Source: Clostridia bacterium (lineage in GTDB: Bacteria; Bacillota; Clostridia; CAKSNL01; HGM11501). From it: a stretch of DNA of 64,000 bases. The stretch is taken from assembly GCA_045545475.1 (NCBI GenBank), contig JAZQAZ010000010.1, positions 96,001 through 160,000 on the forward strand, given 5' to 3'. How positions within the stretch are numbered: position 1 is the first letter of the stretch; every line of letters starts with the position of its first letter. Made by a program: the position numbers and the translations under genes. Positions 5,089-30,426 of the stretch are shown piece by piece. Under the pieces are notes generated by a model. It did no database searches. It worked only from the letters and a program-made list of their open reading frames with translations, and was not told where the DNA came from.

Positions 5089-5252
5089 TGGCGGAGCAAA
5101 TGCTTTAATATCCGAACTTTCTCCATTAGGACTTCCGGGGTCCCCGAAAAGCCGCTGGCTTTGTGGGGAAAAGGAAGAGCAAGGGAGTGGGCGGATATTT
5201 TCGCCGTATGGCGAAAACGGAGTTAAACGCACTTTGCTCTGACGTGGCGGAG
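5089..5252. mobile_element. ~156-bp miniature element at the tRNA 3' end
   Basis: TGGCGGAG (tRNA 3' end) duplicated at 5089 and 5245; imperfect IR CGGAGCAAA/TTTGCTCTG. Confidence 0.5.
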
Positions 5253-5302
5253 ACGGAGGGATTCGAACCCTCGTGTCCGGAAGGGCAAACGCATTTCGAG
5301 TG
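5245..5302 (-). pseudogene. 3' half of host tRNA-Ser(CGA) (left junction of element)
   Basis: Minus strand reads CACTCGAAATGCG-variable arm-GAGGGTTCGAATCCCTC-CGTCTCCGCCA; tRNA similarity stops at the anticodon. Confidence 0.85.
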
Positions 5303-7566: not shown

Positions 7567-7592
7567 AAGAAATAAGGAGAGATATGCTTAAG

Positions 7593-7710
7593 AACTTCCA
7601 TTTCGGCATGTCTTGAATTTGTGTTTTAATCACAAAAAGTCGGTGTTTCCTTGTGTTTCACTCATAAACAGTTATTTTCTTGATATTAAGAACTGCCAAA
7701 ATGGCATATC
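7593..7710 (+). repeat. 118-bp imperfect direct repeat, copy A
   Basis: AACTTCCATTTCGGCATgTCTTGAATT ... CTGCCAAAATGGCATATC; same length and end motifs as 9828-9945. Confidence 0.8.
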
Positions 7711-7746
7711 TAAAATTAACTATCCAAAAAGGATAGTACATACCAC

Positions 7747-7775: not shown

Positions 7776-7985
7776 ATCAATGTAAGAAGGTGGCACTGAT
7801 TTATAAAAGGTTTGACATAAAATAAGTTTATTTGTCTTGAATTATGTAAGTGATTCTTTACAAATAAGAGTGGTTTATGTAATACAGTTTATTCTTCGGT
7901 GCCCGAATGAGGCGCACGTGATACGTGGGCTTTATCGGGTTATATTTATGCCTTCTTGTAGAAAACTATAAGGAGGTTGTTTTTT

Positions 7986-8972
7986 ATGAACAACGAAACA
8001 TTGTTGGAAATTGCAACACAACTGGAATACGATTTTGACGATATTCGCATTCTGCGTCAAGCATTTACAAGAAAGTCTTATTCTGAGGAACATAACGGAG
8101 AGCATCACAATGAGGTGCTAGAATTTTATGGTGACAAAGCACTAGAATTTGTCGTTATGAAAAAACTGTCCGAGTTTTACGGAAATACAACGCAAAATGG
8201 CAAGTATGCTTCCGAAAAGGCGGAAGGACAACTTACCGAAATGAAAAAGAAACTTATATGTAAGAAGATGCTCGCACATCGAATTGATATGTTTGGTTTT
8301 ACAGAACATATTTTAATGGGTAACGGTGATGTCGGTCAAAAAGTTCAAAATCAGGATTCTGTCAAAGAAGATCTCTTCGAGGCGATAGTAGGTGCAGTGG
8401 CTATTGACAGCGACTGGGATGTGGATGCACTTGAAGATGTCGTTGGCAGAATGCTTGACATAGAGTATTATCTTGAAAAAGGCTTCAACGATGATGAAAA
8501 CTATGTAGATTTAATACAAACATGGTGTCAAAAAAGATACGGTTGGATTCCTGAATATGATTTTGTGGAAATAGAAGAAGATTATGAGTGCTCACTAACG
8601 CTGTCAGACGATTATGATGATTTTATCGGTTGCGGATATTCAAAACGAGAAGCAAGAATGAATGCGGCTCAAAAAGCTTATGAATATTTAGAAGAAAATG
8701 ATGAGCTGCTTCTACCTGTTGACGAGGTAGGTGAACCGGATATTGAACGCGCAATCAATCAATTGCAGGAGCTTTACCAAAAAGGTTATATTGATGAGCC
8801 ATATTATGAGTTTTACGAAGAATACGACAACAACGGTAATCCTATATGGAGATGTGAATGCCATATAAAAGGTGCCGAAGAGTATTATTGGATAAACTCA
8901 TCTTCGAAGAAAAACGGAAAAAAGCGTGTTGCCTACGATATGCTTTGTGATGTCCTTGAGTGGGGTGACTGA
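7986..8972 (+). CDS. Ribonuclease III-family protein with two dsRNA-binding domains
   Basis: AFTRKSY...NEVLEFYGD...EDLFEAIVGAVAIDS RNase III signature; two dsRBD-like units (GYSKREARMNAA; SSSKKNGKKRVA). Confidence 0.85.
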   Translation: MNNETLLEIATQLEYDFDDIRILRQAFTRKSYSEEHNGEHHNEVLEFYGDKALEFVVMKKLSEFYGNTTQNGKYASEKAEGQLTEMKKKLICKKMLAHRIDMFGFTEHILMGNGDVGQKVQNQDSVKEDLFEAIVGAVAIDSDWDVDALEDVVGRMLDIEYYLEKGFNDDENYVDLIQTWCQKRYGWIPEYDFVEIEEDYECSLTLSDDYDDFIGCGYSKREARMNAAQKAYEYLEENDELLLPVDEVGEPDIERAINQLQELYQKGYIDEPYYEFYEEYDNNGNPIWRCECHIKGAEEYYWINSSSKKNGKKRVAYDMLCDVLEWGD

Positions 8973-9786: not shown

Positions 9787-9827
9787 AAGTATATTGTACC
9801 AATATTTATTGGAGAAATGCAATCAAT

Positions 9828-9945
9828 AACTTCCATTTCGGCATATCTTGAATTAGAGTTTTACCTGCAAAACCGCGTATTTTCATATGTTTTACTAACA
9901 AACAGGCTATTTTTCCGAGATTAACACCTGCCAAAATGGCATATC
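9828..9945 (+). repeat. 118-bp imperfect direct repeat, copy B (extra CTGCCGATTTGGAATATC unit follows)
   Basis: Aligns end to end with 7593-7710. Confidence 0.8.
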
Positions 9946-10039
9946 AAGAACTGCCGATTTGGAATATCAAGAAATACAGATAAAATGATAATTTCTTCAA
10001 TCCTTTATTTTATAAAGGATTATTTTTAACTTGACAATC

Positions 10040-14144: not shown

Positions 14145-15966
14145 CGTTATATGTTCTCAAAATACGACCGCGTCTTTGAACAAATTCTCTGTAATCATCA
14201 TTGCTGGAAAGTATAAGGGCACTCTTGATTGAAGGAATGTTGATACCTTCGTCAAGACATCGAATAGCCGCCAAAGCCGATATCTCGCCTTTATTAAAAG
14301 CATCGACTAATTGCATTCTGTCATCCATATTTTCCTGAGCTGTAAATTGACTGGATTTATATCCATGTGCTGAAAGAACTCGTTTTACAGATTGGATGTG
14401 TCGTAATTCTTCACCCGTGTTGTTATCAAACAATCGACCATCACCGCAGTAGACTACAAAATGATCCTTTTCTTGAATCTGAGATACTATATAATCTATT
14501 TTCTCTTGTTTTTCGTCCGCCATAGAAATAACACGCAGTCTATTTCTCAAAGACTTCACCAGCTGGTCTGGGTTTATACATACACTGTTTTTAAAACATG
14601 ACAGTATTTTATGAGTGTGATATTGAAATTTGTTTTCATCCTCTTCGCTTGCGTGTACATATATAGGGTGATAGTAATATGGAACAAGGAATTTGCGTTC
14701 AAGAGCTTCTTCAATTGGTAAGCTAAATACTTGTCCACCGAAGAATTCCATTAACTCCTTTCCTCGTTGAGCCGATGTACCGCTGAATGGAGTGGCACTT
14801 AATCCAAGCATATATTTGAATTGTGTATGCATATCTTCAGAACGGTCAGTAAAGCGATGTGCTTCGTCTACAATTAAGAGTTTATCTTCAGTTGATTTTC
14901 CCAAAGTGTTTGTAAACCTTGGCATTTTGAAAGATGCGATTGTTGAAATAATAATTGTTTGTGCTTTTGAATCATATTTCTTTCTGATAATTTCTTGGGA
15001 CATTTGTTGTTCCCACTTTGGATTTTCAGAAGAAACCAATATAATCTTGGCATCTTCGAATGCTTTTTCGACATCTTCTGCCCATTGTTTTACTAAATGC
15101 TTATATGGTGCACATATAACAATCATAGCAGGGTGCGTTTTAAGAAGTTCTTTTGCAGAATAAATTGCGGTCCATGTTTTACCTGTACCGGTAGCCATAA
15201 CATAAAAACCATGATAATCGTTTTCTACCCACGCTGCAATTGCTTGTTTCTGATAATCTCTTAATTCTATAGGAGATTTCGCAGAAACAGATGTAGCACG
15301 TGTCTCTATCATCTGTAAAATGTTAGATTGGGCACTTTCTTTGTAATCATAAACTTTTACAAATTTATTAGTGCCATTCCAAAGAGATTCAAATTCTTCT
15401 TGCTCATCGGCAATATTAGCACATTCTTCAGGAATCCAGTTTTTTACAACACGTATTTTTTCATAGTTGTTTTGATACCCACTTAAAGTAGAGTTTGCAG
15501 AACCGTAGAAAACCACAACATTCCCATCAAAATCCTCAAGAATACCAAGCTTATCATGATATATTCCGAGAGTATCAGTTACAGCAATCTTGATATCAAG
15601 AATTCCACGTGCAATTAAGGTAGCAAGTAATTGTAATTTGGCATCATCAAATACTTCTATTTCTTTCATAAAATCACGAGTAAAGGATGACTTTATAACC
15701 TTCTCTCTTGCTTCATATCCGGTAGTGATTGCCTGAACATCTTCTTCGGTAAGATTCGGACTTGCAATTAATTGTATCTTGCCATTGTTTCTCGCCAATG
15801 CAACTATTCCATCCACAATGGGCTGTAAAACCGACGAGGAGAAAAAACCTACACTTCGTTTATAATTTTTGGTACATTTTAAAACAGGAGTCAAAAAAGC
15901 TTTGGCTATATTTTCTTGACCCACACTTACATAACTTCGTTTAATATCTAATTCCCGGTAATTCAT
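14101..15966 (-). CDS. PLD-like nuclease + SF2 DEAH helicase (PbeA/type III Res-like), apparently C-terminally truncated
   Basis: HDKLGILED...GSAN; MATGTGKT; IVDEAHR; SATP; QRRGRILR followed by only a short tail. Confidence 0.75.
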   Translation of the reverse strand: MNYRELDIKRSYVSVGQENIAKAFLTPVLKCTKNYKRSVGFFSSSVLQPIVDGIVALARNNGKIQLIASPNLTEEDVQAITTGYEAREKVIKSSFTRDFMKEIEVFDDAKLQLLATLIARGILDIKIAVTDTLGIYHDKLGILEDFDGNVVVFYGSANSTLSGYQNNYEKIRVVKNWIPEECANIADEQEEFESLWNGTNKFVKVYDYKESAQSNILQMIETRATSVSAKSPIELRDYQKQAIAAWVENDYHGFYVMATGTGKTWTAIYSAKELLKTHPAMIVICAPYKHLVKQWAEDVEKAFEDAKIILVSSENPKWEQQMSQEIIRKKYDSKAQTIIISTIASFKMPRFTNTLGKSTEDKLLIVDEAHRFTDRSEDMHTQFKYMLGLSATPFSGTSAQRGKELMEFFGGQVFSLPIEEALERKFLVPYYYHPIYVHASEEDENKFQYHTHKILSCFKNSVCINPDQLVKSLRNRLRVISMADEKQEKIDYIVSQIQEKDHFVVYCGDGRLFDNNTGEELRHIQSVKRVLSAHGYKSSQFTAQENMDDRMQLVDAFNKGEISALAAIRCLDEGINIPSIKSALILSSNDDYREFVQRRGRILRTYNDVLLRGYPFARKKF

Positions 15967-18683
15967 ATCAAATCCTCATCTAAGTCTAATTCAATATAAT
16001 CCGATATCAAATCGTCTATATTGTCCAAATCATCTGCCTGTGTAATTGTCGCAGTCGTATCTACAGAAACACCTTGATATCTCTGTGTATCCAACTTTCC
16101 ACTTGGAGCAATTATAGGAACAGACAACTTAAACTGATTCGATGTTGTTCCAACCACTAAAGAATTGCTCCATTTGTTAACCACGCTGTAAATTAGCCAT
16201 TCCGTCCATGGTACATTGATTTTGGGAAGATTATATATGCACTCAAGTGATGTTACAAGCACCGTATCAGTAACTTCGCTTTCCAAAATAGATATTACAT
16301 CATTGGCAACATCATCATTTATTCCGATATGCTCAATAGTAGCAAATGTATTTCTATTCACAAGAAGATGGGTGTCGTTGAAATTATTAAGCAATTCAAG
16401 TATAGAATAAATCTCGTAATGGTTTTCTTTTGCAAAAGAGGTGATTTCGGATATTGCTATTTCTTCGCTATTTATTATTAAATCTTGTAACTGTTCTTCG
16501 GGATCTCCAATTTCGACACCAATATTTGCAACAAAAGGTCTCTTGAATTGATATTGTTCCCTAAACAGATACTCGAGCACCGAGAATAAACTGGTAGGAA
16601 AATGTATAAAAAGCTTATGTAAAAGATCTGAATCGTCGTGTGCTATATAGTCATACAATTCTTTGTAATGTTTTACTTTGTCATCCGAAACAAACTTTTT
16701 TAAAACTCTTGCAAAATACATTTTGTCTGAATCCGAAAGGTTCAACATACTACCGTGAATATATTTACCAAAGAGATTAATGATGTTTGTGTCATCTGTA
16801 GCAAAAGATATAACTATTTCCGTTACACCGGGAAAAGCTCTCTTGATATCTTCTTTCGTAATGGGATAAGAGAACTGTTTAATATATTGAATAATCTCGA
16901 CATACACAGAGGTAACAGATTCGTCTTTTGATATATAATCTCGCCTGAATACGAACTCAGAACCATATAACTCACGCAATATACCCTGTAAATAGTATTT
17001 ATTGTCAATGCCGAATTTGAGTAATTCATCTTCGAAAACACTAAACAAGGTATTGGTCATAAAAATTACAGAAGAACTCTCAACAATATATCGGTGTATT
17101 TTTTCTGCCAGTTCTTTCGAGATATATGATTCTTTCTTGGGACGATATTTACCCCTGCCGCAAAGAATACCTATATCAGAAAGACGCGCAGATATTGCTC
17201 GGCTCTTTTCGGGAAGATTCTTGCATCCATACTCTTCAACTGCAACATATCTGAATACTTGGAGCTCTTTCTCATTATAAATGTCAATTCCATTTGGATA
17301 ATATTTTTCTAGTATTTCAGTATAAATAGCGGTCAGAGAAAGGTGTGAACGATGATATGTAGAGCCGTCCTTTTGGAATTCTTCACATAAAGCTTTTTCT
17401 AATAATTCTCTCGGAATATTTTGTTCTTCAACAGCTTCTGATATAATAGCTTCATATTTCTTTTCATCAAAAGAATCCGGCAAAGATTCAACAATTCTTC
17501 CTATGACAGCAGAGATGGATTCATCACCCATAACAAAAACATCGAGTTGAGAATCATAATAGTAGGAGGGACTGTCAGAAGTACGAAGCAAAAAGACCAT
17601 TTCAGAATATTTATCATCAAAATATTCACTTAGTTCTGATGCAGAAAGAACAGTATCTCCGTTACGTTCCGCAGAAATCTTGGATAGAATATGAGCCTTA
17701 CCCTGCCAAAAATTAAAGATTCTTTTAGCTTTTGCCTCAATTTGACGAACTCTTTCACGCGTGACACCCATTTTGTCGCCGACGCTACCCAACGTTTCTC
17801 CGGAGGCTCGTCCTAAAATAACAGATTTAATACTTTTGGATTTACCATAAAGCGTTTGAAACAAATCCTCAATTTCTTCTTTTATGTCAAATGTGCACCA
17901 TTTAAAAAAATTCAATAATAAGGCAAAATCTGTTACAGACTCTGAAACCTTTTCAGAAACAAAACTATTTATAGTAGCAGTTGGATTGTTCTCTAAGCCA
18001 TAAATATCATAAAGAATTTTGCGTTGTTCATCATCGTTTGTAAAAGCGTTGATGTATCCGGAAACACTGTTTTTCCTTCGCCATACTGGTATAACCGCAA
18101 GATACTCATTAATTTTATTAATCCTGCATTCACGTTCATGTTGATCTTTTATAAGTGGCTTGAGAAGTTCCAACAACGGAAGAATATCGTTCGGAGAGTT
18201 ATAGCAGGCGCGTGCCAAATCAGCACCCAATACTTCAACTGCACTTTTGTATTTTTCAACAATAATCAATTCTTCTGTTGAAATATTCAATTCTTCGCAA
18301 AAAGAAAAATCCTGATTTAGTATGTTTTCAATATTGCTGGATATGATTTCGGGAATATAATTTGCAACTTTTTGTTTTTCATTCGTAGGGTTTAATTCGG
18401 TGGTTTTATTGGAAAGTTCTGACAAGTATTTACAAGTTTCATCATAACACTTTTTACCTGCACCACGAAGTTTGATAAACTCATCAACTTTCATTCTGTA
18501 AAGATCTGCTATGGTATTTACGCCACTATGCATCAATAGATTTGTTACACGAACGGAAATAGGAAGAGATTGTACACTCACATCCTCAACGCTCGACAGA
18601 TCAACTGGGTAAAGATCCCAGAAAGTTGTATCTGATATTAAATTGTCGGCAGTCTTTTTTGAGGTTTTGAGATTTTCTATCAT
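15963..18683 (-). CDS. Large protein with RNA polymerase alpha-CTD-like and sigma70 region-4 HTH domains
   Basis: LPISVRVTNLLMHSGVNTIADL...LRGAGKK; ETLGSVGDKMGVTRERVRQIEAKA. Confidence 0.75.
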   Translation of the reverse strand: MIENLKTSKKTADNLISDTTFWDLYPVDLSSVEDVSVQSLPISVRVTNLLMHSGVNTIADLYRMKVDEFIKLRGAGKKCYDETCKYLSELSNKTTELNPTNEKQKVANYIPEIISSNIENILNQDFSFCEELNISTEELIIVEKYKSAVEVLGADLARACYNSPNDILPLLELLKPLIKDQHERECRINKINEYLAVIPVWRRKNSVSGYINAFTNDDEQRKILYDIYGLENNPTATINSFVSEKVSESVTDFALLLNFFKWCTFDIKEEIEDLFQTLYGKSKSIKSVILGRASGETLGSVGDKMGVTRERVRQIEAKAKRIFNFWQGKAHILSKISAERNGDTVLSASELSEYFDDKYSEMVFLLRTSDSPSYYYDSQLDVFVMGDESISAVIGRIVESLPDSFDEKKYEAIISEAVEEQNIPRELLEKALCEEFQKDGSTYHRSHLSLTAIYTEILEKYYPNGIDIYNEKELQVFRYVAVEEYGCKNLPEKSRAISARLSDIGILCGRGKYRPKKESYISKELAEKIHRYIVESSSVIFMTNTLFSVFEDELLKFGIDNKYYLQGILRELYGSEFVFRRDYISKDESVTSVYVEIIQYIKQFSYPITKEDIKRAFPGVTEIVISFATDDTNIINLFGKYIHGSMLNLSDSDKMYFARVLKKFVSDDKVKHYKELYDYIAHDDSDLLHKLFIHFPTSLFSVLEYLFREQYQFKRPFVANIGVEIGDPEEQLQDLIINSEEIAISEITSFAKENHYEIYSILELLNNFNDTHLLVNRNTFATIEHIGINDDVANDVISILESEVTDTVLVTSLECIYNLPKINVPWTEWLIYSVVNKWSNSLVVGTTSNQFKLSVPIIAPSGKLDTQRYQGVSVDTTATITQADDLDNIDDLISDYIELDLDEDLI

Positions 18684-25634: not shown

Positions 25635-26090
25635 ATGAATAAATCAAAAATTCGGTGTACTTTTGCCGGGCACAGTGAGATTCATAACTCAAATCTTGTT
25701 GAAGAAATAAAGGCTACTGCAAAAGAATTGATTATCGAAAATGGTGTTAATGAGTTCTGGGTAGGTCATTACGGTGACTTTGATCATTATGCCGCAAAAG
25801 CAGTAAGGGAACTCAAGCGGGAGTATGACATAGAGCTTGTACTTGTAATTCCATATCTTACAAAGGAAATCGAAGAATACAAAGAAGACTATTATAAAAA
25901 TTTTGATGCGATAATTATGGCAGACATACCCCAAACAACACCTACAAAATTAAGAATTATAAAAGCAAATCAGTATATGGTAAATGAGTCTGACTACTTG
26001 ATTTGCTATGTGAAAAATACTTGGGGAGGAGCTGCGAAGACATTAGAATATGCAAGTCGTAAGAAAAAAACAATTTACAACTTAGGATAA
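25635..26090 (+). CDS. SLOG-superfamily (YpsA/DUF1273-like) protein
   Basis: CTFAGH, FWVGHYGDFD, NQYMVNESDYLICYV..WGGA. Confidence 0.75.
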   Translation: MNKSKIRCTFAGHSEIHNSNLVEEIKATAKELIIENGVNEFWVGHYGDFDHYAAKAVRELKREYDIELVLVIPYLTKEIEEYKEDYYKNFDAIIMADIPQTTPTKLRIIKANQYMVNESDYLICYVKNTWGGAAKTLEYASRKKKTIYNLG

Positions 26091-26183
26091 ATGACATGTA
26101 TAGCAAATTAAAAAAATACAAAAGCACCCACTTTTTTAACTCCTGCCATTGAAAGTAGTAAAAGCATATGTTAAAATGTCAAT

Positions 26184-26284
26184 GTAAAAATGGTAAGCAG
26201 TTAAAATGGTAAGCAGTTAAGCAGGTATTGGTATGTGCATCCTTGGGATAGGTGTGTGCATTTATACTTGCTTGTTATTTTTTT
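26184..26284 (+). ncRNA. Putative small RNA, unit 1 (~100 nt)
   Basis: Shared 35-nt leader, AAGCAGGTAT/ATACTTGCTT stem with G-U pairs, T-rich end. Confidence 0.55.
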
Positions 26285-26428
26285 GAAGGAAAACTAAATA
26301 GTTTTCGGGGAACTGATTGCATATTAACTTGCAGAATCACATATTTTCTTAAAATATTTTTCTGAAAAATACCCTTTATTTTTTCTCCTGGTCTTGTTTT
26401 GAGAAAAATAATGTGGTAAACTATGTGT

Positions 26429-26533
26429 GTAAAAATGGTAAGCAGTTAAAACGGTAAGCAGTTAAGCAGGTATTGGCGTATGCCTTTTCTTAGGATAGGT
26501 GTGTGCATTTATACTTGCTTTTTCTCATTTTTT
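26429..26533 (+). ncRNA. Putative small RNA, unit 2 (~100 nt, paralog of unit 1)
   Basis: Same leader and outer stem; inner GCGTATGCCT/AGGTGTGTGC pairs only through G-U. Confidence 0.55.
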
Positions 26534-26629
26534 ACGGAAAACAAACTTTTTAGCAGAATAAAAAAATTTATACCTTCAATTTTAGCTCCACCGCTACCAA
26601 TTAGTATTTACATATGCTAAAATAGCACT

Positions 26630-26805
26630 GTAAAAATGGTAAGCAGTTAAAACGGTAAGCAGTTTAGATGGTTTTTAAGGGTAACAAATTTACTCACAAA
26701 ACCGTCGGGGTTTTTGTCAAACCTTGTAAGAAGACGAGGGTACACATAAGCCTTTCCGACGGGAGAAGTATGCCCAAACGCCTTTTTTAAGGTGTTCGGC
26801 ACAAC
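26630..26805 (+). ncRNA. Putative structured RNA, unit 3 (paralog of the 5' part of unit 4)
   Basis: Leader plus hairpins that vary compensatorily against unit 4 (AACCTTGT/ACGAGGGTACAC; TGCCCAAACGCC/GGTGTTCGGCA). Confidence 0.5.
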
Positions 26806-26921
26806 AAATTATTTCAAGTCAAAACAAACGATTTTTGTATTAAGAAAAAACAATTTACAAATTTATATTTAATTTAGCGCCACCTCTACTCAAGAGGGTT
26901 TACATATGTTAAAATAACAGT

Positions 26922-27766
26922 GTAAAGATGGTAAGCAGTTAAAATTGTAAGCAGTTGCGGTAACTTTAGTTACTGATAGTTTTTTCAGGAGATTAACCAT
27001 AAGTTCTTGTGAACCTTTACAAGTCGTAAAGAGTACACCAAAACTTTTATTACAGGAGATATTGTCTGAATACTCATTGAGTGTTCGGCAAGTAAACGGT
27101 ATGACTGAAGAGCGATTATGCTCATTTGCAGTCTGTGGAGTGGTAAAGCTACGGGATAACTATGTCCTGAAGCTCTATCTAAAAATTAAATATTACGGAA
27201 ACAAAAAGAATGTAGATTTAGCCTTAAATGGCTTATTTCTGCATTCTTTTTTTATCTAAATATCGAATGGAAACCAAAACTTTTGAAGAGTTCTATCGGC
27301 ACATCCAGCCCTGCTCGGCAGGAATGTGTACGGACAAAATTTTGTGGAACAACGAAAATGAAATGTGCAAGCTTTTAACGGTTTTCCTTGCACAGCAAAG
27401 TCGGGCGAAAAAGAGCCTCACTTTGTTACTTAAAATCCAGGATGTGAGCAGACATCCGGACACAGTAGCGGCTGTGAAAACACATTCATATGTCACCGCT
27501 TATGGCATATTTCAGCATCGGCATTTTATGCACCTGAGTTTAGCAGGTTGATGCTACCGCCGGATTTTTAAGTCCAAATAACAAAATAGCGGTAATATTA
27601 CTAACCTGGCAGTTAGCTTCATACTAAAGGGAGACAGAGATTAAAAAAGCACACGAAAGTGCCGTAAATATGCTGTTTTCCATTAAGTCAAACAAGGAAA
27701 TACAGAGGTAACAGATACAAAAAGCTCAGTGCCATAGCTATGCCCTTGCGAAAGAAAGGGATTAAA
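26922..27766 (+). ncRNA. Putative long structured RNA / leader (unit 4) running into the tyrosine recombinase gene
   Basis: More than 10 consecutive hairpins, several with + strand G-U pairs; no credible ORF. Confidence 0.45.
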
Positions 27767-28633
27767 ATGAAAACTGCAATATACAAGAATTTAGAAGTTC
27801 AGTACAACAAGTTGTTCCGTCACCTGAAAGTTGGCAGTTTCAAAACGAGAGAGCGTTACGGCAAGGCGTTCAAACGCTTTATGGTATTTCTGGCAAAAGA
27901 GTACCGATTGCAAAAGCTTTGCAACATTTCCGAAAAGCATATACTTGCATACGTTTCGTATATGCAAAAGAAAGGTCTGTCAGCTTCGACCATCAAGACC
28001 GAGCTTGCCGCCATTCGTTTCTTCCACGACAATATGCCGTACACGAGAAGCACATTGCCGAGCAATGAGGACTTAGACCTCAAAAAGCGTACCTTTGGTG
28101 GTGCGGACAGAACCTGGACTTCTCCGGAATTTAACCATATGCTCATTGCCGCAATTGATAACAAGGATTATCAGGCGATTCTGTGCCTTGCGAGATACGC
28201 TGGTCTTCGCTTGGAGGAATGCTTCCGCATCGACACCAATGATGCAAAAAACGCCCTTGATACAGGCAATCTGCTTGTCAAGGGCAAGGGTGGACTTTGG
28301 AGATATGTACCTATCAATGAGTCTATCAGAATTACATTCCGTGATATGTTAAAGATAACTCCCATTGGAGAAAAACTGTTTGTGCGACCTTACGACAAGA
28401 CGCATCTTGCAATGAAAAGACTGCAATGCTTTATTGCGTATCACAGAAAAAGATTTACTGAAAACACAATTACTTTCCACGGACTTCGACACACCTTTGC
28501 ACATGAGCAGTACAACAAGTTCATTGAACAAGGTTACTCTGACTTTATGGCTCGTAAAAAGGTATCGGAGCTACTCGGGCATCACCGTGATGATGTAACG
28601 AGAATTTATTTGTCGGGCGGTGATGATGTATGA
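27767..28633 (+). CDS. Tyrosine recombinase (288 aa) with N-terminal core-binding domain
   Basis: R (GLRLEE), K (KGKGG), HGLR, LGH, Y (TRIY) all present. Confidence 0.9.
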   Translation: MKTAIYKNLEVQYNKLFRHLKVGSFKTRERYGKAFKRFMVFLAKEYRLQKLCNISEKHILAYVSYMQKKGLSASTIKTELAAIRFFHDNMPYTRSTLPSNEDLDLKKRTFGGADRTWTSPEFNHMLIAAIDNKDYQAILCLARYAGLRLEECFRIDTNDAKNALDTGNLLVKGKGGLWRYVPINESIRITFRDMLKITPIGEKLFVRPYDKTHLAMKRLQCFIAYHRKRFTENTITFHGLRHTFAHEQYNKFIEQGYSDFMARKKVSELLGHHRDDVTRIYLSGGDDV

Positions 28634-28839
28634 CCAAAAAGAAAAATCTTTATACAAAAATGCTCAAAGATTACCCCGATGTATTAAACGTAAATCAAAT
28701 GTGCAAGGCTTTGGGAGGAATCAGCACAAAGACGGGCTACAAGCTTCTTAAAGAAAAGAAGATTGAAAGCATAAAGGTCGGTCGGGAATATAAGATAGCC
28801 AAAATAAATTTGATAGATTTCATCACAAATAACGGCTAA
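28630..28839 (+). CDS. Excisionase-like HTH_17 protein
   Basis: YPDVLNVNQMCKALGGISTKTGYKLLKE...KVGREYKI; coupled to the recombinase stop. Confidence 0.85.
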   Translation: MTKKKNLYTKMLKDYPDVLNVNQMCKALGGISTKTGYKLLKEKKIESIKVGREYKIAKINLIDFITNNG

Positions 28840-28936: not shown

Positions 28937-30196
28937 ATGAAAAGAAAAGATATAAATGTCTATATAAGAGACAAAAAAGGTTATTACTATGCTGTTATAG
29001 TTTATAAAAATGCACAAGGCAAGCGAAAAGAAAAGTGGTTTCCGACTAAATTGCAGATTCGCGGTAACAAGAAAAAAGCAGAAGCGATTGCAGATCAGAT
29101 CCTTGAAGAATTTGAAATTCCTGCCGAGGATTTGTGTTTGAAAGAGAAGAGTACAAAGCTTGGCAAGAATTGTATTGCAAATGCTACGCTTGACGATTTG
29201 ACACAATCTCAGGTTGCAAATTTGTTGTTCTCGGATTACATCATAAAGTATTTGCCGCTGACGAGAAAAAGGCGAAGAAAGATTGAAGACACTACATATT
29301 CAGGCTATGAGGCAAACGTAAAAAGCGTTGTCGCTCCTTATTTTGCAAAGAAAAAGATTAAGCTTAAGGATCTGACGGCAAAAGACATTCAGGACTTTTA
29401 CGACAAGCAACTTGAACGTGTAAAACCAAACTCGGTTATTCGATACCACGCAATCATAAGACTTTCTCTGTGCCACGCAAGAAAGATGCGATACATCAAG
29501 GAAAATCCCATTGAAGAGGTGGAAAAGCCCGAGAAGAATCAGTTTATCGGCAAATTCTATACGGCTGAAGAACTTACCAAACTTATAGAGTTAGCCAAAG
29601 GCACAAAGCTTGAAATTCCCGTTATTATGGGCGGTTTTTACGGACTTCGCAGAAGTGAGGTTGTGGGATTGAGATGGTCGGCAATAGACTTTGAGAACAA
29701 CATATTTTACATCAATCACACGGTAACAACTCCGCAAATTGACGGTGTAACCAAAATTGTTGCAAAGGACAGAGCAAAGACTAAATCAAGTTTGAGAGCC
29801 TTACCACTTGGCAAAGATGTTAAAGAAATACTTCTTTGCAAAAAGCAACAGCAGGAAGAGTACCGCAAGAAGTTCAAAAGCTCTTATAACAAGAAATGGC
29901 TTGATTATGTGATGGTTGATGAATTAGGTGATTTAATTACACCCGATTACATTACCGGAGCATTCAAAAGCTTTTTGGCAAAACATGAGCTTCGTGAGAT
30001 ACGCTTCCACGATCTTCGTCACACCTGTGCTTCGTTGCTTCTTAACAAAGGCAAGCACGAGGGAATAACGCTTAAAGACATTCAGGTATGGCTTGGACAC
30101 AGCGACTTTTCGACTACTGCGAATACATATTCACATCTTGATGCAACGTCAAAAGGATTTTCGCTAAGTGCGTTAGAGAAGGCTATAACATTCTAA
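28937..30196 (+). CDS. int: Tyrosine site-specific integrase (ICE/phage type) with N-terminal arm-binding domain
   Basis: GLRRSE, KTKSS, FHDLRHT, LGHS, ANTY; lies at element end. Confidence 0.92.
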   Translation: MKRKDINVYIRDKKGYYYAVIVYKNAQGKRKEKWFPTKLQIRGNKKKAEAIADQILEEFEIPAEDLCLKEKSTKLGKNCIANATLDDLTQSQVANLLFSDYIIKYLPLTRKRRRKIEDTTYSGYEANVKSVVAPYFAKKKIKLKDLTAKDIQDFYDKQLERVKPNSVIRYHAIIRLSLCHARKMRYIKENPIEEVEKPEKNQFIGKFYTAEELTKLIELAKGTKLEIPVIMGGFYGLRRSEVVGLRWSAIDFENNIFYINHTVTTPQIDGVTKIVAKDRAKTKSSLRALPLGKDVKEILLCKKQQQEEYRKKFKSSYNKKWLDYVMVDELGDLITPDYITGAFKSFLAKHELREIRFHDLRHTCASLLLNKGKHEGITLKDIQVWLGHSDFSTTANTYSHLDATSKGFSLSALEKAITF

Positions 30197-30296
30197 AATG
30201 AAAAAAGTAACCTATACTTTTTCACTATTCACTATTACTTATTACTTCCGCCAAAATCGACAGTAAGAGAGTAGTGAAAAGTGAAGAGGTAAAAAG

Positions 30297-30335
30297 TAAA
30301 ATCGACAGGGCTCTCTGTCGAACCCTGTCGATTTT
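30297..30335 (-). terminator. Terminator of the element-borne tRNA
   Basis: AAAATCGACAGGG...CCCTGTCGATTTT. Confidence 0.7.
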
Positions 30336-30426
30336 GGCGGAGAAGGTGGGATTCGAACCCACGTGCCGGAATTACCGACAAACTGATTTCGAGTCAGCCC
30401 CGTTATGACCGCTTCGATACTTCTCC
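30335..30426 (-). tRNA. tRNA-Ser(CGA), intact, inside the element
   Basis: GGAGAAG/CTTCTCC acceptor, G73, encoded CCA, GCTGA-CTCGAAA-TCAGT anticodon arm, long variable arm, GTTCGAATC T loop. Confidence 0.95.

Follow-up and report, generated by a model that had tools for sequence, protein, structure and literature searches.

RNAs that promote processive antitermination act in cis and in an orientation-dependent manner, and polymerase modified in this way passes several unrelated terminators; put of HK022 and EAR of Bacillus are leader RNAs of this kind. In phage lambda, the N/nut and Q/qut systems combine a promoter-proximal recognition site with a nearby terminator; short RNAs are made by default, and read-through is licensed by a lineage-specific factor. 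In gut Clostridia, genes for defence, resistance and metabolism are moved by integrative and conjugative elements, and to our knowledge almost nothing has been described of the regulation of these elements. The closest described counterparts of the locus reported here lie on other mobile elements. In the sections of the respective papers that deal with them, canT of Tn916 is an antitermination leader located just 5' of xis/int, a structured RNA of ∼340–450 nt (PMC11658703), and conAn of pLS20 is a leader RNA controlling termination in a Gram-positive conjugative element (PMC8191782). A precedent of a different kind is p576, where, in the portion of the work that describes them, four strong establishment promoters carry dual direct-repeat motifs, in two cases just 3' of the start site, and these motifs are bound by the ribbon-helix-helix repressor Reg576 (PMC8708921). 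Here we analyze a 64,000-nucleotide stretch of a Clostridia bacterium genome (contig JAZQAZ010000010.1, positions 96,001–160,000; hereafter the window) in which four units, each with its own promoter, short tandem repeat and hairpin-forming body, are stacked upstream of a gene for a Xer-like tyrosine recombinase. We propose, with about as much confidence as doubt, that these units are conditional-termination operon leaders read by a putative lineage-specific factor.

The module in the window and in its relatives

A repeat search places the array at 26120–26976, as four same-orientation copies of a ∼119-nt family at 26120, 26365, 26566 and 26858. The units start at 26184, 26429, 26630 and 26922, at intervals of 245, 201 and 292 bp (Table 1), and the four units, starts, spacings and shared geometry given in an original prediction, which was made from the sequence alone, are borne out by the repeat search and the sequence. 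The leader of every unit is 35 nt long and contains two GGTAAGCAGTT repeats with a period of 16 nt, and its initial G comes 6 nt past an extended -10 element (TGnTAAAAT or TGnTAAACT) in all four cases. With at most one mismatch, GGTAAGCAGTT has nine matches in the window where 0.84 are expected, a count reached in none of 100 shuffles, and eight of the nine fall within 26192–26956 on the plus strand. In the whole 2.74-Mb genome there are four occurrences of the tandem leader, all in this array. Searches against Rfam 15 linked the units to no known family: none matched at the gathering score, where the sole match in the window is a tRNA, and the units within 25900–27800 gave nothing at E <0.2.

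Two familiar kinds of array can be set aside, as had been anticipated. CRISPR arrays consist of short identical repeats and unique spacers of similar length, usually with cas genes, and a ToxI-type antitoxin consists of ∼36-nt head-to-tail repeats beside a ToxN-type toxin gene. The units described here are 201–292 bp in size, each with its own promoter and a homologous body, and the 16-nt repeat is present in only two copies per unit. Neither a cas family, among the 40 window open reading frames (ORFs) scanned, nor a ToxN-like family, among the scanned window ORFs, was found.

Relatives were collected by an exact-pattern scan of one genome per prokaryote species, which yielded 73 loci. Five of these (L011, L017, L021, L042 and L073) were set aside as chance matches after inspection, leaving 68, almost all from metagenome-assembled genomes (MAGs) of uncultured gut Clostridia (Oscillospiraceae, Acutalibacteraceae and 'Eubacteriales'). 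The family loci share the promoter, a leader with one to three repeats and, in most cases, a long hairpin followed by a U-run, which we refer to as T1. Plasmid and phage collections contained no similar DNA, and a scan of viral contigs returned a single match, on the same 43,982-base contig as the chance locus L017. This Lapidilactobacillus contig (L017/L189) carries at 2486–2511 on the minus strand an unrelated tandem pair of GTAAGCAGTTAATAAC, with neither promoter nor hairpin. We found no description of the module in the literature searched, and this negative extends as far as that literature.

Across 86 distinct units, the promoter consensus consists of a T-run, C.CC at about -44 to -41, TTGcAA and then TGnTAAAAT; the family promoter is close to consensus and, by its sequence, a strong one. 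The sequence TGnTAnnnT is present in 71 of 90 distinct units from all loci, with a 6-nt spacer in 70 of the 71. Upstream of the -10 element, the T-run, C.CC and TTGcAA are all that is conserved family-wide. A 14-bp box that had been proposed as part of the shared geometry is a real sequence, but it corresponds to the region just 5' of and overlapping the -35 element and is mostly unconserved in the family. Repeats of the GGTAAGCAGTT type lie only downstream of the start site, with no copy upstream of the -35 element in the family loci.

Units 1 and 2 contain long hairpins with G-U pairs and a T-rich end, as originally described. In per-sequence folds, T1 begins 0–2 nt past the last repeat in 34 of 35 distinct class-A sequences. 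A covariance model, R1, was built on 21 class-A sequences and gave 100 matches in related loci, corresponding to 88 distinct rows. In these rows 86.4% of the cells are paired under model R1, as opposed to 43–49% when the 3' partner is slid, and the covariation score of 0.323 (0.055–0.084 when slid) is reached by none of 500 shuffles. All 10 pairs of the outer helix show changes on both sides, and G-U pairs are frequent, so that the fold exists only on the transcribed sense strand. On covariation, a check suggested with the original prediction, the outcome is in favor of T1, on the sense strand and over 88 rows aligned to model R1. Its claim that the stems of units 3 and 4 vary compensatorily did not hold up, the folds inspected showing mostly one-sided changes from G-C to G-U and one double change. 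Per-sequence folds and the covariance model were used here in place of RNAalifold, which gave no pairs on a MAFFT alignment in which the middle of the hairpin was misaligned. Both T1, in units 1 and 2, and T2, a hairpin that closes the array, consist of a stable hairpin followed by a U-run on the transcribed strand, which is the sequence form of an intrinsic terminator. The T1 tails are of the kind TTTTCATTT; a simple terminator scan missed T1, whose hairpin has internal loops.

In 51 of the 68 loci, as judged by clustering neighboring ORFs, the module is co-oriented with and directly 5' of one of three protein operons, and it therefore reads as an operon leader. Operon A (20 loci) encodes a Xer-like recombinase and, after it, either a large serine recombinase or a tyrosine integrase. 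Operon B (18 loci) is PRTRC-like, with a PRTRC-A match, and encodes a small protein, JAB, ThiF, a DUF6094 methyltransferase and E2. Operon C (13 loci) encodes a ∼1000-aa SNF2-like helicase, a DnaN-like protein, a MoxR ATPase, SSB and a VWA protein. The JAB/ThiF/E2 and SNF2 operons occur together on a complete 65-kb contig that, from its genes for ParA/ParB, TrbL, a VirB4-like ATPase, VirD4, RepA_N, a primase and Rad52, is a conjugative element. These two operons belong to conjugative elements, and the window holds the recombinase operon. The module looks like a shared front end of operons in a conjugative-element family of gut Clostridia. The original prediction had described a family of separately transcribed small RNAs, of which the separate promoter-driven modules are supported and the stand-alone genes are not, given the location of the module 5' of operons.

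To remove the bias of a pattern-based scan, further searches were started from proteins and not from the repeat. Homologues of the SNF2 operon at 61–67% identity keep the type I repeat (L094–L096 and L098), and in one genome both units, which are 14.7 kb apart, have GGTTGTAGTT repeated with a period of 15. A metagenome set comprised 69 SNF2-operon relatives that had 320 nt or more of upstream sequence, and 54 of them have one of six clear tandem-repeat types: type I and type II in 3 each, type III (AGGGCGRAGTAAGTT) in 45, and types IV, V and VI in 1 each. The remainder consists of L174, with a single type III copy, 6 relatives with a less clear seventh form and 8 with no such leader. Type III is thus the commonest among the metagenome relatives (45 of 69), many of which are labelled human gut. 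The repeat type changes between lineages, and it does so jointly at all units of one element.

Within type I, the repeat is present in one, two or three copies, spaced by 16 nt or, in eight loci, by 42 nt. Repeats occupy +9 to +35 in nearly all units, and all copies in related loci are on the sense strand; an antisense copy is absent from the window, and the 492 kb of related loci contain one isolated 10-mer. In L098, ∼130 nt separate the promoter from the repeats, which still abut T1. The 5' arm of the next hairpin resembles a degenerate further copy of the repeat in types I, II, III and VI. A GGGRnA...UGCCC motif, read off the sequences, is kept in or after the hairpin across all repeat types and is also found in units 3 and 4 and just 5' of the ribosome-binding site of the recombinase; a second terminator lies directly 5' of the ribosome-binding site in types I–V and is present in the window. 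Judged from these sequences, the tandem repeat behaves as a recognition element that is tied to the hairpin rather than to the promoter, because its copy number and spacing vary and the L098 repeats stay beside T1. A constant handle with a variable body, as first proposed, describes the window correctly, but the relationship is reversed in the family, where the repeat switches between at least six clear types and the hairpin with its GGGRnA...UGCCC motif stays.

The order of the array in the window is an AACTCC promoter with hairpin A, a TTCTCC promoter with hairpin A, a TAGCTCC promoter with body B and a TAGCGCC promoter with body B' or C. The same order of four units is seen in at least six loci from different MAGs (the window, L032, L061, L066, L071 and L072); between loci, promoter types and bodies are found in new combinations, broken at the leader. 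Relatives of the recombinase at 64–78% identity have one unit only, and those in L085–L087 (60–75% identity) have another leader family altogether. The latter, at -706 to -560 (L085), -800 to -650 (L086) and -1130 to -990 (L087) from the recombinase start, comprises a consensus promoter, GTAAAnnnnATTTGTGnnGGGG and a terminator hairpin with a TATGYCC motif. From -75 to -1, the promoter of each window unit has 55–59 of 75 matches to promoters of conjugative-element operons, compared with 39–49 of 75 for units 1 and 2 against any sibling and 59 of 75 for unit 3 against unit 4. Because the promoters are closer to the conjugative-element ones, the array looks as if it was assembled from operon leaders and not duplicated on the spot. 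A contig from an RNA library joins 26801 back to 26579, so that in some relative unit 3 is duplicated in tandem over 223 nt.

Conditional termination and its alternatives

According to our proposal, each unit would comprise a sigma-A-type promoter and a cis-acting 5' leader, in which a short single-stranded tandem repeat precedes T1 and its U-run. Four such modules of different ancestry would be stacked in the window before T2, a structured 5' untranslated region (UTR) and a recombinase–excisionase–integrase operon. By default, transcription would stop at T1 or T2; units 1 and 2 would then give RNAs of ∼90–110 nt and unit 4 one of ∼340 nt. A lineage-specific factor bound to the repeats on the nascent RNA would allow polymerase to read through, either by blocking T1, whose 5' arm is repeat-like, or by making polymerase terminator-resistant. 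Stacking would then mean that every unit adds a promoter and a checkpoint, or that polymerase modified at any one leader passes all later terminators. The proposal is founded on the promoter consensus, the conservation and type switching of the repeat, the covariation of T1 and the placement of the module in front of operons; it predicts transcription, termination, the factor and recognition of RNA by that factor. The units are well supported by comparison with relatives, and the mechanism is unproven.

We treat one protein as a lead for the factor and nothing more. It is a 294-aa S1-domain-like protein (L079:6354–7238) with S1-like RNA-binding repeats, seen as sub-threshold S1 matches, and its homologues in G001, G002, G003 and G176 are 65–77% identical. 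It is a backbone gene, present in 5 of 5 conjugative-element genomes.

Several observations weigh against conditional termination. No protein shared by every carrier was found. The Xer-like recombinase, which had been put forward as a candidate partner of the units, was sought in 5 conjugative-element genomes with the leader and found in none of them, so that it cannot be the general partner, and the resolvase was found in 3 of 5 genomes and so is not present in every carrier. In the two array genomes tested, that of the window and one other (G000 and G004), the first gene of operon 1 was not found, and its presence does not follow the repeat type; the S1-like protein was not found in the genome of the window with the L079 query. 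Because an exact repeat pattern was used to find the 68 loci, the repeat is bound to be invariant among them, and the alignment behind the T1 covariation was fitted to the model's own structure. Single-sequence folding z-scores are weak for units 1 (-1.8) and 2 (-1.7), and the support for T1 is therefore comparative. Five public runs hold parts of the stretch (shares of 0.06–0.21), all of them as contigs of relatives, which are unable to show transcript starts, ends or strand; one 510-nt RNA-library contig spans 27146–27652. The position of the repeats relative to the start site also suits a DNA operator, and lineage-specific direct repeats are typical of repressor–operator pairs.

Pairings within the RNA itself were considered as well. 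As an RNA-only antiterminator, pairing of the repeat with the 3' arm of T1, judged by hand, works for some types (AAGCAGG, type II) and fails for the AAGACGG, GAGATGG, AAGCGT and type VI forms, for which reason it was dropped as a general mechanism. An interaction between the repeat and the TTACGGAAAACAAA linker was rejected, as the pairing amounts to 4 bp only and shows no covariation in type II. The 5' end, GUAAAAAUG, pairs with CAUUUUUAC after T1 in ∼16 of 34 class-A sequences, with no compensating changes.

The main alternative, which we think unlikely, is that the tandem repeats are double-stranded DNA operators of a lineage-specific repressor encoded by the element, that this repressor keeps the strong promoters silent until the element reaches a cell without it, where they would be active for a short time (zygotic induction), and that T1 and T2 are insulators only. 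The four establishment promoters of p576 with their dual direct repeats provide the precedent, as far as that part of the work describes them (PMC8708921). A near-consensus promoter, repeats located just downstream of the start site, the switching of the repeat at all units of an element together and the presence of establishment-type genes in the operons (SSB, methyltransferase, primase and Rad52) are all compatible with such operators. However, the L098 repeats keep their place beside T1 and away from the promoter, no copy is found upstream of the -35 element, and a spacing of 16 or 42 nt with one to three copies fits cooperative DNA binding poorly. A 15–16-bp period would moreover place adjacent sites on opposite faces of the helix, and the repeat-like 5' arm of T1 in four types would be left unexplained. 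In the operons, no gene for a repressor, of the ribbon-helix-helix kind or another, was recognised.

That the units are genes for trans-acting small RNAs, with the constant 5' repeat as a protein-binding or sponge handle and the short RNAs of units 1 and 2 as the functional products, seems to us quite improbable. The location of the module before operons and the single unit of the more distant recombinase relatives weigh against this explanation, as does the greater similarity of the window promoters to those of conjugative-element operons than of units 1 and 2 to their siblings, and no antisense target is evident in the window or, apart from the isolated 10-mer, in the 492 kb of related loci. 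It would account for the absence of a gene between unit 1 or 2 and the next promoter and for the conservation of the four-unit order in different MAGs, and short terminated leader RNAs with repeats could titrate whatever binds them.

We attach very little weight to the leaders being recombination sites, in an array of cassettes built by the Xer-like recombinase in an integron-like manner or by way of the shared 35-nt leader. The array is always located just 5' of the recombinase, the number of repeats varies from one to three, unit 3 is tandemly duplicated over 223 nt in one metatranscriptome contig, and promoters and bodies are exchanged at the leader, the TAGCGCC promoter being found with bodies B, B' or C; this reshuffling is explained just as well by slippage or homologous recombination between copies of a shared 35-nt sequence. 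By eye, the leader is a direct repeat that lacks the inverted core used by tyrosine recombinases, and the same leader is present in elements in which the recombinase was not found (0 of 5 genomes). No inverted repeat of the kind expected in an integron was found in the leaders or at the unit ends, the four inverted pairs detected being elsewhere, and the recombinase scores 44.9 bits against an integron-integrase model with a cut-off of 265.

Ribosome-dependent attenuation through an MVSS micro-ORF, or a small peptide made from the GGGAUAnnUAUG motif inside T1, is scarcely credible: the micro-ORF is indeed present in all four window units, as had been claimed, the first ATG is at +7 in 85 of 90 units, the stop codon abuts the 5' arm of T1 where the second repeat has an ATG and the T1 motif resembles a Shine-Dalgarno sequence with an NUG start codon, but an ATG in the second copy is restricted to 22 of 76 units, no ATG is seen in the printed type III repeats, no Shine-Dalgarno sequence precedes the +7 ATG, and starts inside T1 have the conserved linker in frame 0, 2 and 1 in 10, 8 and 2 of the 20 cases found, with peptides of 2–50 aa and CTG in 12 of 45 starts. 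Inconsistent frame and length led us to reject the small peptide from the T1-internal NUG, and a type I toxin–antitoxin system (pAD1 par-like), which would have a conserved small hydrophobic ORF overlapped by an antisense RNA, was rejected because ORF frame and length are not conserved. A minus-strand promoter scan of the array gave one weak match (9/12, 26433–26405) and none stronger; antisense RNA itself was not looked for.

If the units are conditional-termination leaders, the repeats might further serve as RNA address labels, so that the factor of each conjugative lineage reads its own repeat and the island in the window eavesdrops on a helper, excising only when the helper is active. This extension is doubtful. 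It would have the island, with neither conjugation genes nor the factor, gather modules from at least three different conjugative-element promoters; the stacked attenuators would then amount to a satellite-like regulatory mimicry, with a helper that is either incoming or resident.

The island and the recombinase operon

The array is contained in an island of ∼25 kb with tRNA-Ser(cga) at one end and a copy of the tRNA 3' end at the other; this 3' end has two matches in the window (5245 and 30335) with 0 expected. Defence-type cargo includes GmrSD, Mrr, two Fic proteins, a PLD-helicase, a macro-domain protein and an RNase III-like protein. The gene order continues with a small serine resolvase, a YspA/SLOG protein, the array, the Xer-like recombinase, the excisionase-like protein and the integrase. 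No conjugation genes were recognised on the island among the window ORFs scanned.

Table 1. Positions of the array units, the recombinase operon and the island ends in the window
Feature	Position	Strand	Description
tRNA-Ser 3'-end copy	5245..5269	+	2 mismatches in 25; likely left end (att repeat)
Unit 1 promoter	26137..26183	+	T-run, AACTCC box, -35 TTGAAA 26149-26154, TG-extended -10 TAAAAT 26172-26177; 10/12 consensus matches
Unit 1 leader	26184..26218	+	GGTAAGCAGTT at 26192-26202 and 26208-26218, period 16
Unit 1 T1	26219..26284	+	55-nt hairpin 26219-26273 and T-rich tail, terminator-like; model R1 91 bits
Unit 2 promoter	26370..26428	+	TTCTCC box, TG-extended -10 TAAACT 26417-26422
Unit 2 leader	26429..26463	+	Repeats 26437-26447 and 26453-26463
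Unit 2 T1	26464..26545	+	57-nt hairpin 26464-26520, U-run, conserved linker TTACGGAAAACAAA; model R1 89 bits
Unit 3 promoter	26583..26629	+	TAGCTCCACCGCTA box 26583-26596, TG-extended -10 TAAAAT 26618-26623
Unit 3 leader	26630..26664	+	Repeats 26638-26648 and 26654-26664
Unit 3 body	26665..26860	+	Three hairpins, GGGAGAAGTATGCCC 26761-26775, no clear terminator; z -4.16, 0/200 shuffles fold as well
Unit 4 promoter	26875..26921	+	TAGCGCCACCTCTA box, TG-extended -10 TAAAAT 26910-26915
Unit 4 leader	26922..26956	+	Repeats 26930-26940 and 26946-26956; second starts TG, not GG
Unit 4 body	26957..27197	+	Several hairpins, GGGATAACTATGTCC 27153-27167, linker TTACGGAAACAAAA at 27193; z -5.61
T2	27198..27263	+	Strong hairpin and U7, terminator closing the stacked leaders; conserved in 12/12 homologues
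Recombinase 5' UTR	27264..27766	+	Conserved, non-coding; ATAGCTATGCCC just 5' of ribosome-binding site
Xer-like tyrosine recombinase (XerRec)	27767..28633	+	288 aa from likely start; R/H-x-x-R/H/Y catalytic residues visible by eye
Excisionase-like HTH_17 protein	28630..28839	+	Start overlaps recombinase stop
Tyrosine integrase of island	28937..30196	+	419 aa
tRNA-Ser(cga)	30335..30426	-	Integration target, right end of island

The region 3' of T2 includes part of an ORF (27228–27551) that we ruled out as coding, because in 12 homologous loci it has 1–2-nt indels and has lost its start codon while the nucleotides are conserved; 27264–27766 is therefore a conserved 5' UTR of the recombinase. The xerDC RNA motif (RF03062) aligns over its full length with 27487–27606 at 42.3 bits (E 6.9e-5), which is below its gathering score of 72.5. 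The stretch stands 5' of the gene for the Xer-like recombinase, 3' of the four units and outside them. In the 12 related loci there is no match to RF03062 or another Rfam family at E up to 0.001. PMC5737381 does not mention the xerDC motif in its main text.

Three further features of the island were noted. Between the integrase gene and the tRNA, the 11-mer AAAATCGACAG occurs at 30253–30263 and 30298–30308 on the plus strand and at 30325–30335 on the minus strand, where 0.01 are expected; the copies may be arm-type or core sites of the integrase. Two stretches of ∼140 nt (7576–7715 and 9811–9950), 2235 bp apart and 77–81% alike, lie on either side of the RNase III-like gene at 7977–8972. Among the island defence genes, 15963–18683 on the minus strand encodes a 906-aa protein that has both an RNA-polymerase alpha-CTD-like domain and a stretch like sigma-70 region 4.

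Comparison with known systems

The module provides a searchable signature of regulated operons in one large conjugative-element family, and the switching of the repeat within a kept architecture suggests an immunity-like specificity system that acts on transcription termination. The stacked array is a testable case, in which a non-conjugative island is tied to the control logic of conjugative elements.

As they are described in the parts of the papers cited above, canT and conAn2/ConAn1 are, like the module, cis elements in the 5' part of long mobile-element transcripts, before intrinsic terminators, and canT is situated just upstream of xis/int, as are the leaders and 5' UTR of the window. 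In the same descriptions, however, both are large structured RNAs that occur once per element and have no tandem repeat. The module, by contrast, is a 35-nt unstructured tandem repeat that is lineage-specific, fused to its own promoter and present at every operon, and it has no sequence or Rfam relationship to either. The leader is located ahead of at least two terminators, and it is in this layout only that it fits a processive antitermination RNA.

The EGeRS2/Reg576 regulon of p576 and the pLS20 family resembles the module in that near-identical strong promoter regions are repeated before several establishment operons of a single conjugative element, and in the portion of the work that describes them the EGeRS2 motifs are DNA operators, 7-mers placed 2 bp apart and mainly upstream of the -35 element. 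The repeats of the module are 10–11-mers with a 15–16-nt period that are confined to the transcribed region and followed by a covarying terminator hairpin, and no repressor gene was found. With lambda N/nut and Q/qut the module shares logic only: it lacks the boxA/boxB hairpin, no N- or Q-like gene was recognised and the host clade is different. The module differs from the antitermination leaders and the establishment regulon alike in being short, based on a tandem repeat, fused to a promoter, reused at each operon, lineage-specific and, in this window, stacked four times. Should its repeats be read as RNA, the module would represent an antitermination signal that is short, modular and re-addressable, in contrast to the large RNAs described to date.

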